Origin: a virus
Taxonomy: Duplodnaviria > Caudoviricetes
IMG/VR virus record: IMGVR_UViG_3300037507_003370
Span: 142,292 to 206,291 of that record
Direction: 5' to 3' (one strand)
DNA: 64,000 nucleotides
Shown here one piece after another: positions 4,436 to 63,679 of the stretch. The translations under genes and the position numbers were made by a program. The notes under the pieces were generated by a model. The model had not been told where the DNA came from. It worked only from the letters and a program-made list of their open reading frames with translations, and did no database searches. Position 1 is the first letter of the stretch, and each line of letters begins with the position of its first letter.

Positions 4436-4849
4436 CTACTTCTGTCTTGCGATAGAAAATACCTGAGACGGTTTAATAATAGGCTGATTTTGATTGTTGG
4501 TAATATTATTCCTCTTTTCTTGCTCTATAAGAACCAAATTAAATATTAGATTTTCATAAAAAAGAGTATCTTCTGGACTAGAAGAATTAGATTTTATTAT
4601 AGACAAAATTTCTTCTCTCATTTTTGAATTAATGGTCATATATAAAAACTTAGCGAAAGTTTGCGATAATGATTCTATATTTGCAAAATCGCTAAATTCT
4701 GGAAAAAGACAAGAAACATTTATTTTAGACTCTTCATCAATCTCAAATCTAATTGAACCTAAAATTTTTTGAGGCTCTTTATTTTTTACAAAAAAGAATG
4801 ATGAAATTTTCTTAAAATAGATTTGTACATAGCTAATATATTTTTTCAT
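4436..4849 (-). CDS. Hypothetical protein
   Basis: 137-aa ORF, ATGA overlap with the upstream gene. Confidence 0.6.
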   Translation of the reverse strand: MKKYISYVQIYFKKISSFFFVKNKEPQKILGSIRFEIDEESKINVSCLFPEFSDFANIESLSQTFAKFLYMTINSKMREEILSIIKSNSSSPEDTLFYENLIFNLVLIEQEKRNNITNNQNQPIIKPSQVFSIARQK

Positions 4850-5190
4850 AGAATGTACATTGCTCTAGTGAAAAATCTATCATGAATTATTTTTTTGCTT
4901 TTAATTAAATTACCAGAGAGAATATTTTTTTCATATTCTTTAGGAATCATTCCAATAAAATAAATATGATTTTCATTATCTATATTACGAACATCATATA
5001 ACTTGAGCTCTAACCAATCAATATTAACGTATAAATATTTTTTTACTAATTCTGATAGATTCTCTTTTATGGGCTTTGATGTATCATTATCAATATCTGG
5101 TACAACTAGCTCTGCCTCATCTAATGATAATATATATGATTCATTATTCTGAATATCATATGACATTATAATTAATTTTAATTTATTCAT
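4846..5190 (-). CDS. Hypothetical protein
   Basis: 114-aa ORF overlapping both neighbours. Confidence 0.55.
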   Translation of the reverse strand: MNKLKLIIMSYDIQNNESYILSLDEAELVVPDIDNDTSKPIKENLSELVKKYLYVNIDWLELKLYDVRNIDNENHIYFIGMIPKEYEKNILSGNLIKSKKIIHDRFFTRAMYIL

Positions 5191-7400: not shown

Positions 7401-8474
7401 TTACTTTGATATACACTGAATCAAAGCATCAGTGGCATTGCTCCACGATAACTTTTCGGCCATTTCTAAACCATTTGGATTAGTATTTATTCTATTTTTA
7501 TAGGCATATCTCATAAATTCTTTGAATTGATCAATTTCTTTATCTCCTATTTTTGCCCATTTTCCAAAATTTCTAAAGTATTTATTATCATTGGCCAATT
7601 CTAAATCTGTTATTTCAACAAGAAAAGAATTTTTTTCATTACAAAAAGCGGTATGGGCTGAATAATTAGTTGTTATGACTGGCTTATTCATAGCCATCAT
7701 TTCAAGTAACTCCAAATTCCAGCCTTCTGCTCTTGATGGAAATATCCCACAATCTGCATAACTCATTAATTGAGCAACTTCTTCTTGAGTATTAAGCCTT
7801 GGAAATATTTTAATTTTATCTTTAAGCTTACTATTCATATATAATGAATGCCAGTATTCTAATTCCTGAGAACTAAAAGCAGCTTCTGAAGATGATCCAT
7901 TTATCCATAGCTCTACATCATCTTCCTCTGAAAATGTTTCATTAAATAAATTAATTAATATATCATGTCCTTTTCTTATTTCCCATTTTCCTATATTCAT
8001 AAATACATATTTTTTAGGATCTTTTAGCGACGGCTTAATTGTATGATCAAATAAACTTACATTAACGCCTAAAGGAACAATATCTATAGTTTTATTTATT
8101 CCATTACTTTCTAATACTTTCTTTGCCCATTCACATGTAACTATAATATGATCTGTACTATTTAGATGATGAATTTCTTTTTTTGTTAAATCTGTTAGTT
8201 CAAAAAATGGAAATGCAAAAAATTTACCAGTACCTATTCTAGCACCCAAATCAAATTGATGCCATATTTTTAAACACGGAGCATCTTTATCAAAATCTTC
8301 TTGTTTTTCAAAACTTTTGAAACAAGCGGCCGCATCATCTTGGTTTTCAGCATTAATCTGTCCCATTGGGAAAAGGGTGACATTATGTTGCTTATCATAA
8401 AGTTGCTTTAGGAAATTAATGCCAGCAACGCCATATCCAGTATATCCTATTGCAGAGAAAAAGTTGATATTCAT
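7401..8474 (-). CDS. GT-B glycosyltransferase (GT4-like)
   Basis: GYTGYG, NIGKWEIRKG, PSRAEGWNLELLEMMAMNKPVITT (E-x7-E motif). Confidence 0.88.
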   Translation of the reverse strand: MNINFFSAIGYTGYGVAGINFLKQLYDKQHNVTLFPMGQINAENQDDAAACFKSFEKQEDFDKDAPCLKIWHQFDLGARIGTGKFFAFPFFELTDLTKKEIHHLNSTDHIIVTCEWAKKVLESNGINKTIDIVPLGVNVSLFDHTIKPSLKDPKKYVFMNIGKWEIRKGHDILINLFNETFSEEDDVELWINGSSSEAAFSSQELEYWHSLYMNSKLKDKIKIFPRLNTQEEVAQLMSYADCGIFPSRAEGWNLELLEMMAMNKPVITTNYSAHTAFCNEKNSFLVEITDLELANDNKYFRNFGKWAKIGDKEIDQFKEFMRYAYKNRINTNPNGLEMAEKLSWSNATDALIQCISK

Positions 8475-36880: not shown

Positions 36881-37150
36881 TAGGAGCGGTGGGAGTCGAA
36901 CCCACACTTGAAGGATTTTCTTACCACTATAACTTTTGTTACCATTTCTGTTTGTGGTCTGGACTTTATCTTAACCATAACTTTCGTTTTAGGTTCCTGC
37001 CGTCAAGTCTCTACACCTTCATATTTCTATGCTTGGCTCGGTATTAGCAGTTAAGCCTTCACCGAATTTGACAGGTTCTACATTAAAAGTTTCCCTTTAT
37101 GCACTCAAATTAGTTCAAGTCCTTTGTCTCTGCCTTTGGACTACACTCCC
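36881..37150 (-). tRNA. tRNA-Leu(UAA), split by a group I intron (exon 1 37150-37117, exon 2 36919-36881)
   Basis: Spliced 73 nt: acceptor GGGAGTG/CGCTCCT, A73, anticodon arm AAGGA-CTTAAAA-TCCTT, T-arm GTGGG-TTCGACT-CCCAC; CCA not encoded. Confidence 0.9.
36920..37116 (-). ncRNA. Group I self-splicing intron (197 nt, no ORF)
   Basis: P AAATTCGGTGAA, Q AATACCGAG, R GTGTAGAGACTTGACG, S AAGATAAAGTCC; U before the 5' splice site pairs with IGS GAGT; terminal G. Confidence 0.9.
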
Positions 37151-46491: not shown

Positions 46492-46499
46492 AATATAAG

Positions 46500-46849
46500 T
46501 GGACTAGAGGGGAGTCGAACCCCTGTCCAGAATAAACATCAATATAAACTTCTACATCGTTAGTCTATTGTAATTCGGACACTAGACAAACCTAGAAGAA
46601 ATTATCTTCATCAGATCGGTTACGATCATTGTCTATGTTTTCGGGTTAGACTTCCTTATCAGATTTATCTGAGTCAACATGATTGGGTAATAAGGCCCAT
46701 ATAGCCCCACTCGTACCTAATTAATTAGGCAGCGAGAGCGAGATTTACTTCGCCAATTAACATTTTTTGAATAACTTTTATACTGGCCCGTTATTCAACC
46801 AGTCGATGCCGTCTATATCTATTTTACCTGTCGATACCTTTACTAGCCC
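46500..46849 (-). ncRNA. ssrA: tmRNA, one-piece, tag (A)GEVNLALAA*
   Basis: Acceptor GGGCTAG/CTAGTCC with G3-U70 and A discriminator; 5' GGTATCGAC; T-arm GGGGTTCGACTCCCC; tag ORF 46754-46725; CCA not encoded. Confidence 0.93.
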
Positions 46850-47620: not shown

Positions 47621-47696
47621 TAGGGCGAGTAGGAGTCGAACCTACCTATGAACACCTTATAAGAGTGTCGGATGCAACCGGCTTACCTTCCGCCCC
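47621..47696 (-). tRNA. tRNA-Ile(UAU) with atypical D-arm
   Basis: Acceptor GGGGCGG/TCGCCCT, A73, anticodon arm ACACT-CTTATAA-GGTGT, T-arm GTAGG-TTCGACT-CCTAC. Confidence 0.8.
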
Positions 47697-59117: not shown

Positions 59118-61532
59118 TATAGATCAATATTTACTTCGTAATTGTTGAGCATCTTATAGAATTCTTCTCTTATACTATATACGGCATTATCCGCACTATT
59201 AAACTGATGTCCATATTTTTCCCACTCTCGTAGTTGTTGACTAAATTGCCACAACATACGCTGAGATTTTTGTGCTTGGTTCATTATGTCATACTGAGCC
59301 TTATCTTCTGGAATATCCAGATCAAAATTAAATGTGGCTTTCATAATGGAAAATAACACTTCCCTTCTAGTGGATCTTTTTCATGTGGATAATTAAATGG
59401 TTCTAAAACTTTTCGTCGTTTGTCTTTAATAAAATTTAATACTTCAGCAAAACAATTTTCACAAATTTGAATATCATATTGAGTACCATCTTGATTGGAA
59501 CAATATCCCCAAGTAGCACTTAGTTCAGCATATTCATGGTCTATGTCTTTGGAGCAATTTTCTCCACAACAATCACAATGAATCCTGTCAAGAACTTTAA
59601 CTGTTTTTTTCTTATAGGTTTTCATTTGTATCTTTGTCTACCATAACACTGATTAATTCTTGGTCTTGATGGATCTTTAATCACATTAGAAAATGTTTGC
59701 TCTTCTAATGCTCTGTTAATATCAACAGCAGTATTGTAAGATTCACAAGGATTGTGATATTTTCCCCATCCCATTCGTAAATATAAATCTTCCATGCTTT
59801 CGTCTAGTGTTTTAGGACTAAAACAACCAAACAGGTTGCAGAAACCTTTCCAAAAACTATTCATGTTTATTCTCCTTAGAATGTTGTTCGTCCCAAGTTT
59901 GCTGAGTATGCCATTGTCCCGTACTTAAATCTTTGCTACTAAAAGTTCCCATTCCCATACATTCACTACACGCTGCCATATCTATTTTCGGCCCAGCAAC
60001 AGCATATTCTTGAAGTAAAGTTTGGTATTTGTTTTCAACAGTATCACAGTATTCATAACCGTCGCCATAAGGTAGTTTAACACACTTTTCACATTTGTCA
60101 ACCATCATATGATGATTTAAAAATAATGCCAGTGACGCATCCATCATGAGTTTATTTATATCTGTAGAAATTTCTCCCTTACCTTTGCAGAATGAACAAA
60201 CTATTAGTGGAGGTTCTGATTCTTTTTGTATATTCTTTTTATAGAAACTATTTAAACAGGATACTCCGGTTAAAGCAACAGCAAAAATAACTATTGTGAT
60301 ATAAAACAAACCTAGTAGATCTTTTTCGTCCTCAATCATATCCTATTATCCACTCTATTTCATGAAATTTAAAAGTTTTATTCAGTTGTTTACAATGCAC
60401 TACTGGATGATAGCCCCATAAATATACTACTTCTCCTTTTGTCCAACCAATCTCGTCTGGCTTATAAAACCATACTGGATCAGATTGCCTTAAGGTATAT
60501 TGTTGACATAATGGTTTTGATATATTCTTTTTATGAAGTGGATTCAGAAGAAATGTAGTAAATAGTACCAAAATAATTGGCAAAGTTATTAGCCAAAGGT
60601 CTGATGCTTGCATATAACTCTTATATCTTCGATGAGGATTCATAGTTTAATTTTGCTTACTCCGTAAAGTATAGATCGTGCCAATAATATGCCACAACAT
60701 ACTTCTACTATTTTAAGCAGACTTAGGTACAACATTATACTTAACTTCCTTGTTGTGACTCTTTGGCTTTTTGTAGCCCATAAATACTGTGCTAGTAATA
60801 ACCCCCATACCAGTTATGAGGGTTACTACTATGCCTACGATAAATATGGTAAGATTGCTCATTTGAATAAATTTCCCAGAGAAAGAATACTTGGAACCCA
60901 CAATCCTACGAATAGTGCCTGTTGCTTGTTGAGGTCACTATCTCCTGCGAACCATAGTGTAACACTAAAAACAAAACTAGCAAATGCGGCCACAAGAAAA
61001 TAATTTCGACTGTTCATAATATTCCTTTTTGTTAAATTTGAAACTCTTTTAGTATCTCTAATATTCGTCGGGCTAACGATGCACCGCCGACAATTCTTCC
61101 ATCAGTATAATCTTCTCCATATCCAGCAGAAGATTCATGATCCTTTTGTTTTTTGATTTTTTGATTACACAACTTGATAACTTCAAGTATTTTGTCTTTT
61201 TGAGTTTGGTTCATTGGTTAGTAGTAATCAATACCCTCAATAGGTGACTCATCAATAAGACCATCCATAGTCTCTTTCATAGCATCCCTACAACTTTGTT
61301 TTACTCTTTCGTGATGTTCATTATGAAGTTTCACAATGTATTCGGCGGTTTGTTGATCCAAATCCCCAGCATCAGCAATAATATATTCCTCTTCATCATC
61401 TGGTGACGTTGATTCTGTATAGAGTATTGGTTCAACTGGAACGATTCTTTTACACCAACAATTTGATACATGACATTCAACGGCTTTCCACTTTACTAGG
61501 AAAGATAATTCTTTTGCTTGTTCAAAGTTCAT
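59117..61532 (-). other. Run of small hypothetical CDS (59117..59359, 59341..59625, 59622..59864, 59857..60339, 60332..60643, 60713..60901, 61032..61214, 61218..61532); several carry CxxC pairs or TM helices
   Basis: Co-oriented, mostly overlapping ORFs. Confidence 0.5.
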
Positions 61533-61588
61533 TTTGGTGTATTGTATTATAGAGATGTGTTGCAGACATTTCTGAACCCGTACAATTC

Positions 61589-61617
61589 ATTATACCAGAA
61601 GCCTGAGTGTTTGTCAA
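61589..61617 (-). promoter_or_regulatory. Promoter TTGACA-N17-TATAAT
   Basis: Perfect consensus with extended TG; restarts minus-strand transcription past the HNH gene. Confidence 0.85.
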
Positions 61618-61660
61618 CTGCAACTTGACAACATTTGGGCTTTCTGTGTTTGAGGAATCT

Positions 61661-62290
61661 ATGATTACAAAAATATGTACATTATGTAAAAAAGATAAAG
61701 AATTAGATGAATATTATTTAGATAGTCGTATGCTATGTGGAAGAACATCTGGATGTAAAGAGTGTTTATCTTATAAAAATAAAATACAGAAAAGAAAAAA
61801 ATACGATTTCAAACCTAGAGTAAAAAACCATAATTTACCTTCGTACTACAGTAGGAATAAGGAAAGACTATTATTAAGGAAAAAAGAATATGATGATAAT
61901 CCAATTAACAAAGAAAAAAGAAAACAATATATCAAAGAATACAACCGCAAACAAAGATTACTGAATAAATCTTATAAAGTAAGAGATAATATAAGTAGAA
62001 GAATTCGTTCTGCTATTAATAATGGCTATAAAAGTAAAAAAACCTTGGAATTATTAGGATGCTCTATAGAGGAACTCAAAAAATATTTGGAAAAACAATT
62101 TAGAGAAGGTATGAGTTGGAAAAATTATGGATTATATGGTTGGCATATAGATCATATAATACCATGTTCTAGTTTTGATTTAACAAATATAGATCAACAA
62201 AAAATTTGTTTCCATTATACTAATTTACAACCATTATGGGCTAAAGATAATTTATCTAAAGGAAATAAAAGCAGCATTTCAATCTTATAG
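61661..62290 (+). CDS. HNH homing-type endonuclease (paralog of 39533..40156)
   Basis: Start MITKICTLC after a GAGG RBS; WHIDHIIPC..HYTNLQPLWAKDNLSK. Confidence 0.87.
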   Translation: MITKICTLCKKDKELDEYYLDSRMLCGRTSGCKECLSYKNKIQKRKKYDFKPRVKNHNLPSYYSRNKERLLLRKKEYDDNPINKEKRKQYIKEYNRKQRLLNKSYKVRDNISRRIRSAINNGYKSKKTLELLGCSIEELKKYLEKQFREGMSWKNYGLYGWHIDHIIPCSSFDLTNIDQQKICFHYTNLQPLWAKDNLSKGNKSSISIL

Positions 62291-62297
62291 AAACCCT

Positions 62298-62353
62298 GCC
62301 GAAACTTTACGGATGGTTGATTATGGGACTACCCGCGATCCCAACCTTTCGGC
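62298..62353 (-). ncRNA. Small structured RNA candidate with nested pseudoknot
   Basis: GCCGAAA/TTTCGGC, GGTT/AACC and GGGAT/GTCCC stems; loop GCGGGT complementary to bulge ATCCGT; directly after a consensus promoter. Confidence 0.55.
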
Positions 62354-62365
62354 ATCAACATTTTC

Positions 62366-62394
62366 ATTATATCAGACATTTCAGCCTTTGTCAA
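62366..62394 (-). promoter_or_regulatory. Promoter TTGACA-N17-TATAAT
   Basis: Perfect consensus with extended TG; no co-oriented ORF follows. Confidence 0.85.
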
Positions 62395-63014
62395 TAGCCG
62401 TATACATCACCCTTGGTTAAAATTTCTGTTTCCAACTCGTTCAAACACCTAAAATCTGTACCATTAATAACTTTTCTCCAACTCTGATGAAAATGACCAA
62501 ATCGCCAGAACTTAGGCTGATGAATATTAAATAGTTCTTCTAAAGCCCAACTAGTAATATTCTCATAAATCTTAGCACCCGGAGGAAGAAGATAAGAATA
62601 AAGACTTTGAGGACAATCATGAGTTATTACAACATCTGGTTTAGTCTCACGATATAGTTCTCTAGCCTTCATAAAGTCTTCAATTTTTACCTGCTCATCT
62701 TCCCACCAATCAATACCTATTGTACGATATTGTCGGTCAATACTATAAGCACCACGATAATAAAAGAACTCTATTCTGTTCAGACTTGTATATCCATAGT
62801 CTCCCAAAAAATGAGGATAATTATAACAAGTATTATAATTGTCATGATTGCCTGGCAATATAAGATGTCTTGTAGAATCTATATTTTTCAATGTATCATA
62901 CTTAAACCCAAAATCCCCTATCTGTAGAGTGTACGGATTTTCTGCCTGACGAGACAGTATACGATGATACTTCTCATACTTACCATGAACGTCGCCAATT
63001 AATGTAATACTCAT
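62391..63014 (-). CDS. Calcineurin-like metallophosphoesterase
   Basis: IGDVHG, IGDFG, GNHD, ITHDCP, GHFH. Confidence 0.9.
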   Translation of the reverse strand: MSITLIGDVHGKYEKYHRILSRQAENPYTLQIGDFGFKYDTLKNIDSTRHLILPGNHDNYNTCYNYPHFLGDYGYTSLNRIEFFYYRGAYSIDRQYRTIGIDWWEDEQVKIEDFMKARELYRETKPDVVITHDCPQSLYSYLLPPGAKIYENITSWALEELFNIHQPKFWRFGHFHQSWRKVINGTDFRCLNELETEILTKGDVYGY

Positions 63015-63679
63015 ATAAAAGTTTCTAGTTTTATTTCGCCGTCTTTAACAGTTAGATAAGTGCAACTTTTTTCTGTCCAACACCCACTATTAGCATACCA
63101 TACAACATGGTCTTTGTCAATGATTGGATAATGAGTATGTCCTAAACAAACACAATCAATAGTTTTGTTTATAGCATATCCCCTTGACTTTTGCATCATA
63201 TGCTCATTACATCTAAGATATATTTTAGATCGCTGCTTGATAAATTGTGGCAGAAATCTTTTATCAAATCTTTGAATAGTTCTATAGAAAAAATCTGCTA
63301 TCTTTGTAGTATTAGGATATTTGTAGATAAAATCATCAAACTGGTCGCCATGCAAGCACAAAAAGTTTTTATTTCCACTAGAAAAAACGTATTCGTTCTT
63401 AAAATCTATACCAATTAAATGAGAGATGGTTTCAGCATCACCATCATGGTTGCCCCTAATCCAAATAATCTCTACATATTTACTCATTCGTCGCAATAAA
63501 GATAGTATCTTCCAATGATTCTTCTTTAGTCTGCGAAAATCCAGATTGTCAAAAAAGTCCCCATTAATAATAAGCCTATTTGTTTTAGAAAATACTAGTT
63601 CTAGAAAAGCATACAATTGTTTGCTTTCACAAACATCGCTTCCTAAATGAGTATCACTTATTATTATTGCATCCAGCAT
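63011..63679 (-). CDS. LpxH-like metallophosphoesterase (UDP-2,3-diacylglucosamine hydrolase family)
   Basis: SDTHLG, NGDFFD, GNHD, LHGDQFD, GHTH, NSGCW. Confidence 0.85.
   Translation of the reverse strand: MLDAIIISDTHLGSDVCESKQLYAFLELVFSKTNRLIINGDFFDNLDFRRLKKNHWKILSLLRRMSKYVEIIWIRGNHDGDAETISHLIGIDFKNEYVFSSGNKNFLCLHGDQFDDFIYKYPNTTKIADFFYRTIQRFDKRFLPQFIKQRSKIYLRCNEHMMQKSRGYAINKTIDCVCLGHTHYPIIDKDHVVWYANSGCWTEKSCTYLTVKDGEIKLETFI

Follow-up and report, generated by a model that had tools for sequence, protein, structure and literature searches.

Within the 64,000-nt window analysed here (the whole stretch of DNA, which forms part of a large A+T-rich phage genome), a perfect consensus promoter faces the 3' end of a convergent HNH gene, and no co-oriented ORF lies behind it in this allele. 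What the promoter transcribes, and whether the product has anything to do with the HNH gene, is the question raised by this locus. The original prediction proposed an unclassified, compact pseudoknotted RNA of ~60 nt, driven by this orphan promoter and running antisense into the HNH gene. Our comparison with homologous loci revealed a real, uncatalogued structured RNA, in agreement with that proposal, with covariation and no Rfam match. However, the RNA is about 90 nt long and overlaps the last HNH codons, and its fold differs from the proposed one. It is a new combination of known fold elements.

Conserved fold of the RNA

Pattern scans, together with a synteny search via the upstream phosphoesterase gene, yielded 145 matches, of which 91 were distinct and 90 could be parsed; most are on viral contigs. 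The synteny search, which is independent of the RNA, detected it in 13 of 15 loci, all with the same L3 loop, and searches in which L3 was left free added only one variant (L252, with C2 of L3 changed to U). Since the search patterns fixed parts of the core, distant members may be missed. Searches with the 5' or the 3' part alone revealed no fusion to other domains.

Of the cells in a model-fitted alignment (88 distinct sequences), 96.5% are paired, and 16 of the 22 pairs show changes on both sides, counts that overstate independence because the homologues are related and recombining. None of 500 shuffles scored as high as the real alignment, and slid structures were at most 50% paired. The model used for the fitting did not contain the pseudoknot pairs. 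An independent MAFFT alignment gave 90.8% pairing, and the minimum free energy fold of the full 97 nt (-26.0 kcal/mol) equals the nested part of the comparative model, comprising P1, P2, P3 and P5. The coordinates of all features are collected in Table 1.

The 5' domain is a three-way junction of P1, P2 and P3. In the most divergent members (L073, L112, L124, L135, L139, L155 and L159), all of its helices are replaced by other complementary sequences, and P2 is longer. The complementarities named in the original prediction are all present in the window, and its P3 is the correct helix. The P1 put forward there can form all seven pairs in only 10 of the 90 homologues, is 30-75% paired in alignment A2 and shows no compensatory change; the former P2 likewise lacks compensatory change, and the bases of its 3' side are part of the real P1. 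The proposed pairing of the loop with a 3' bulge survives in its core of three to four invariant pairs, while its two outer pairs are not kept. In the present model, the CGG of L3 would form the pseudoknot PK1 with an invariant CCG that sits 1-4 nt after P1 among the homologues. All three pairs are possible in every one of the 88 sequences, and as they are invariant, PK1 is not proven by covariation.

Directly 3' of the junction domain, P4 and P5 interleave into an H-type pseudoknot. At the end of P4, 40 sequences have a G-C pair and another 40 have C-G, and the central P4 mismatch, A.A in the window and G.G in most relatives, switches on both sides together. Each of the inner three pairs of P5 has changes on both sides; outer P5 is variable in sequence and length. 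About 24 junction bases are near-invariant, namely L3, CCGUA, the 3' strand of P4 and J5. An additional pairing between L3 and J5 of 2 bp (G7-Y and U8-A) is compatible with all of the sequences, without two-sided change. A further candidate pair, C2-G, is broken in seven sequences and was rejected.

The U-rich loop L1 precedes P5, and its second position changes together with the second P5 pair: the combination is U/U/A in 69 homologues, C/C/G in 20 and another in one. This three-way exchange holds in 89 of the 90 homologues and in 60 of 61 distinct 3' halves; no intermediate between the two states was seen, and the exchange may be a single evolutionary event. U.A-U and C.G-C are the two canonical major-groove triples, so that the exchange is as expected for a triple helix (PMC7583470). 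Taken together with the two interleaved covarying stems and the U-rich loop, the sequence comparison suggests that L1 forms a triple helix of three triples on inner P5. A natural swap of U.A-U to C.G-C provides comparative evidence for a triple helix ahead of any solved structure.

On the minus strand, the 66-nt piece alone is no more stably folded than shuffled sequences (z -1.5). A reading on the plus strand, where this piece folds better (z -3.8), was also considered and rejected. The minus strand is favoured because the promoter, the G-U pairs (76 in P2) and the U-rich third strand fit only there.

The promoter named in the original prediction, TTGACA-N17-TATAAT, is present on the minus strand as proposed. 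Perfect consensus promoters number four in the window, as compared to 0.23 expected, and about 13 promoters of similar type drive the small-gene region; being one of these, it is an ordinary strong phage promoter. A promoter matching at least 10 of 12 positions stands ahead of 58 of the 90 homologues but at only 1.6% of random sites. For 55 of the 58, 6-7 nt separate the end of the -10 box from P1, a distance at which transcription should begin with the first paired base or its neighbour. From this sigma70 spacing, we infer that the +1 in the window is G62359, the first paired base of P1. The sequence CCGAT shortly after the -35 box is common to several promoters of the window (50724, 49604, 37633 and 34767, minus strand), and is possibly a phage-specific promoter element.

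Table 1. Position of the RNA, its structural elements and the adjacent features in the window
Feature	Position	Strand	Basis
Structured RNA, 89 nt, followed by a U tail	62271..62359	-	Model R1, 94.7 bits (member of the training set)
5' domain, three-way junction	62316..62359	-	Comparative fold, helix variants among homologues
P1	62359-62354/62321-62316	-	Changes on both sides at 5/5 pairs
P2 hairpin	62353-62344	-	Changes on both sides at 2/3 pairs
P3	62343-62339/62328-62324	-	Changes on both sides at 4/4 pairs
Loop L3, UCGCGGGUA plus one variable base	62329..62338	-	Near-invariant among homologues
Predicted PK1 partner CCG, pairing with CGG of L3	62310..62312	-	Pairable in 88/88, invariant
P4, first stem of the 3' H-type pseudoknot (62309-62305 with 62290-62286)	62286..62309	-	
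L1, U-rich predicted third strand on the inner end of P5	62300..62304	-	
P5 (62299-62291 with 62279-62271)	62271..62299	-	Inner three pairs 98.8% paired
J5, conserved joining strand	62285-62280	-	
U tract, 7/8 U, terminator-like with P5	62263..62270	-	Sequence
Sigma70-type promoter, 12/12 consensus, extended -10	62366..62394	-	TTGACA-N17-TATAAT read in the sequence
Calcineurin-like metallophosphoesterase gene, upstream, usual neighbour	62391..63014	-	Pfam PF00149
Free-standing HNH/endonuclease VII-like gene, 209 aa from ATG, with ribosome-binding site	61661..62290	+	PHROG 1035, E 7e-20
Second perfect promoter, carried by the HNH cassette	61589..61617	-	Sequence
Small gene, directly after the RNA in the HNH-free allele L020	61218..61532	-	

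Likeness to known RNAs

The RNA has no match in Rfam 15 at the gathering score, and nothing overlapped it at E values up to 10, either in the window or in seven homologous loci, in line with an unclassified RNA. The families covered include twister, twister-sister, pistol, hatchet, hammerhead, HDV-like, riboswitches and orphan motifs. Among 185,579 prokaryotic genomes, a strict pattern found no match and a relaxed pattern two chance matches, exact patterns being liable to miss divergent members. No cultured phage among 50,697 phage records matched the RNA, and the nearest DNA ligases of cultured phages are only about 31% identical to that of the window.

In phage T4, the non-coding RNAs RNAC and RNAD lie in the tRNA cluster, and some members of the present family are also among tRNA genes. 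Like this RNA, RNAC and RNAD are small phage-encoded RNAs of unknown function (PMC9697503). However, they are late, whereas this RNA has a predicted early sigma70 promoter and a double pseudoknot, and bears no similarity to the phage records searched. We found no paper that names the family or bears the loop sequence; a prior listing among the motifs of a large survey of viral structured RNAs (PMC10690425) is possible.

The 5' domain resembles class 1 flaviviral exonuclease-resistant RNAs (xrRNAs) in its P1-P2-P3 three-way junction, in the predicted pairing of L3 just 3' of P1 and in the further helix that comes after it (PMC8374639, PMC5760640). An xrRNA requires that its 5' strand be threaded through a ring and paired into the junction (PMC8374639). 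In contrast, the predicted +1 of this RNA is the first P1 base, so that it would have no 5' strand to thread through the 15-16 nt ring. Nor is there any sign of a pseudoknot between the 5' end and the junction, as the upstream bases show no consistent pairing with J3/1. Furthermore, this RNA differs in its invariant L3, its extra H-type pseudoknot, its DNA phage origin and its position at the start of a transcript.

The 3' domain, with its U-rich L1 and predicted major-groove triples on stem 2, is reminiscent of telomerase RNA and of the SAM-II, SAM-V and preQ1-II riboswitches (PMC7583470). Unlike the triple-helix riboswitches, it is fused to a three-way junction, and it lacks an Rfam match, a sequestered ribosome-binding site and downstream metabolic genes. 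The put elements of phage HK022 share a length of ~70-90 nt, a position right after an early phage promoter, an indifference to the downstream genes and a triplex, a predicted one in the present RNA (PMC9378689). However, put consists of two stem-loops with a minor-groove triplex, whereas this RNA has a terminator-like end stem and persists before convergent genes.

An xrRNA-like junction and a predicted triple-helix pseudoknot are joined in one phage RNA. New classes of riboswitches and ribozymes have emerged from folds of this profile, small (here 90 nt), well defined and uncatalogued with an invariant core; the find is less surprising in that such phages often carry orphan structured RNAs.

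Genomic surroundings and the HNH cassette

The window encodes, among others, rIIA, DNA ligase, tmRNA, a tRNA and a group I intron, and complete relatives that carry the RNA are 167-244 kb in length. The RNA locus is one of four G+C-rich islands in the window, within the top 0.3% of its 60-nt windows, and the window contains no second copy. A group I intron core matches Rfam RF00028 with 60 bits at 36938-37126 on the minus strand. The tmRNA and the tRNA-Ile (anticodon TAT) lie on the same strand, at 46497-46849 and 47621-47696, respectively, and a perfect promoter (47757-47730) stands directly ahead of the tRNA-Ile.

A phosphoesterase gene is located within 900 nt upstream of the RNA in 70 of the 90 homologues, a linkage that common descent alone can explain. 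In the window, two different calcineurin-like metallophosphoesterase genes are arranged in tandem upstream of the RNA (62391-63679, minus strand).

The description of the promoter as an orphan applies to the HNH-bearing alleles and fails elsewhere: a co-oriented ORF follows the RNA in 73 of the 90 homologues, mostly ~20 nt after P5, and several of the remainder have shorter ORFs. This is a variable small gene, the ORFs falling into 27 unrelated groups, and its ribosome-binding site lies outside the fold. The bases after P5 are U-rich, with a mean of 4.1 of 8 as compared to 2.5 in the background; the mean is 6.5 of 8 in the HNH lineage and 4.75 in 52 others, and 19 homologues have no UU run there. 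A simple terminator scan did not call P5 with the U tract of the window. Given the weak U tract and the co-oriented ORF close behind, the RNA of the HNH-free alleles probably doubles as the 5' end of an early message.

Three divergent members (L073, L135 and L155) lie within tRNA arrays. P1 begins 3-4 nt after the tRNA 3' end in L073 and L135, and the gap is ~20 nt in L155; such adjacency is absent from the remaining loci examined. In L135, a new promoter directly follows the RNA. In L155, a tRNA-like element (706-768), not called by ARAGORN, is present a few bases after it.

The antisense relation to the HNH gene is real as an overlap, since the P4 3' strand, in its A.A variant, reads as the HNH stop codon on the opposite strand, but it is incidental, as an HNH gene or remnant occurs at the site in only about 11 of the 90 homologues. 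The near-identical allele L020 has no HNH gene at the RNA site. Its identity to the window is 92.8% as far as 62277, and the match picks up again at 61532, indicating that ~750 bp are inserted in the window. The HNH gene is an insertion, and the RNA does not depend on it. The HNH proteins at the RNA site are 47-100% alike, and several alleles retain only remnants. By analogy, this pattern fits a free-standing homing endonuclease (PMC2988022). One 3' half of the RNA is common to all HNH-bearing alleles, which may reflect homing accompanied by co-conversion, but the 5' and 3' halves of the RNA shuffle among all allele classes.

Like the mob and seg free-standing homing endonucleases of T4 (PMC2988022), the HNH neighbour, a candidate homing endonuclease, is intergenic, belongs to the HNH family and is present or absent between close relatives. 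Its HNH domain is C-terminal, whereas in the T4 mob genes it lies ahead of a distinct C-terminal region. The sequence of the promoter carried by the cassette recurs in L024, L127, L150 and L197 at the distal end of the HNH gene, a position from which it could set off transcription of the genes below anew. On the opposite strand, the leader before the HNH start (61559-61665) has a strong fold of -34 kcal/mol. A related HNH cassette, with 76-83% DNA identity to that of the window, lies ~1 kb downstream in L020 (5790-6601) and has no RNA.

Possible functions of the RNA

We tentatively favour a self-contained, decay-resistant small RNA whose ~24-nt core would bind a protein or a small molecule, a reading that the comparative data render quite possible, if short of probable. 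Host RNA polymerase would start the RNA at its first paired base from the strong early-type promoter, and the RNA would end at P5 and the U tract, or be trimmed back to P5 from a longer transcript. With a paired 5' end and a 3' end clamped by the triple helix, it would resist decay. The near-invariant bases would form one surface for a protein, of host or phage, or for a small molecule, irrespective of the neighbouring gene, and the phage might use the RNA as an abundant early decoy or modulator; the HNH gene would be a mobile element that landed against its 3' end. A stand-alone RNA is favoured because the core survives where it has nothing to regulate in cis, because its neighbours lack coherence and because there is a single copy. 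The core is intact beside convergent HNH genes with a strong U tract, as well as right before the new promoter of L135 and the tRNA-like element of L155, and the RNA is present once in each complete virus record with a match, rather than once per early promoter. The argument from these decoupled copies is weakened in that the HNH-bearing alleles may have arisen recently. No partner gene co-travels with the RNA among the homologues, and the L3 8-mer has no antisense target in the window.

The functional readings of the RNA are not fully exclusive of each other. A doubtful but serious candidate is a leader that acts in cis on an early operon, be it a ligand-sensing attenuator whose folded core stabilizes the P5 terminator or an RNA similar to HK022 put that binds RNA polymerase and alters elongation. 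It would account for a compact, aptamer-like core in a 5' leader at the +1 of a strong promoter, for the gene behind it in most homologues and for the U-rich bases after P5. In six riboswitch classes, the ligand pocket is built by a triple helix within an H-type pseudoknot (PMC7583470), and putL of HK022, which contains a triplex, is likewise located shortly after its promoter (PMC9378689). However, the 27 groups of downstream genes share no common function, the ribosome-binding site is left outside the fold, and the core is kept in the HNH and tRNA-array alleles, where no gene follows. A conserved alternative helix did not emerge from the one candidate tested, the P1 of the original prediction, which is possible in few homologues. 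Absence from the prokaryotic genomes, by the two patterns used, would also be unusual for a metabolite riboswitch. An aptamer or ribozyme of a new class, in which the triple-helix pocket and the invariant junction bind a small molecule or catalyse an undescribed reaction, is unlikely; its ligand would be, for example, a nucleotide that signals in the anti-phage defence of the host, soaked up in trans.

It is rather more doubtful still that the RNA is a mechanical roadblock, its xrRNA-like 5' and triple-helix 3' domains only protecting its own transcript or a processed product from exonucleases. The helix order of class 1 xrRNAs, with L3 predicted to latch 3' of P1, speaks for such a role, as these folds block bacterial RNase J1 (PMC5760640) and triple helices are known RNA stability elements (PMC7583470). 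However, the threaded strand and the J3/1 pairing of the xrRNAs are missing, a purely mechanical pseudoknot would be expected to covary rather than stay invariant, and only one of the about 13 promoters has the RNA. We give even less credit to a self-cleaving ribozyme of a new class, trimming for example tRNA trailers or the transcript. In HDV-like and theta ribozymes, a P2 5' strand between P1 and P3 pairs with the 3' end, and J4/2 holds an invariant catalytic C; theta ribozymes are tRNA-associated and start at the tRNA 3' end. The compact double pseudoknot with its invariant junction bases speaks for a ribozyme, and the position of P1 in L073 and L135 is reminiscent of the theta ribozymes. 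On the other hand, no Rfam ribozyme model matches, the parsed alignment of the homologues lacks the HDV-like P2 strand, and the candidate catalytic pyrimidine in J5 is U in 29 of the 90 homologues. In addition, most copies have nothing 5' of P1 to cut, the tRNA gap is wider in L155, and the RNA is single-copy.

Finally, it is very improbable that the RNA is part of the HNH element and serves it as antisense repressor or as an OMEGA- or HEARO-like guide. The overlap with the HNH stop codon and the shared 3' half of the HNH-bearing alleles would suggest such a link, but the ~79 of 90 homologues without an HNH gene at the site largely refute it. OMEGA and HEARO RNAs are obligately linked to, and co-oriented with, their nuclease; this RNA is antisense to a protein of the HNH/endonuclease VII type and is present where most alleles have no HNH gene, and related HNH cassettes stand at other sites without it, as in L020. 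Whether decoy, attenuator, roadblock or catalyst, the RNA would add a mechanism to early expression in large phages.

Two relatives depart from the usual arrangement. In L032 (4615-4680), the promoter position is kept, but only a remnant resembling the 3' part of the RNA follows; the RNA is deleted in this relative and is thus dispensable in some relatives. L059 carries two different copies ~3.3 kb apart on the minus strand (4802-4903 and 8160-8258), the only two-copy case.
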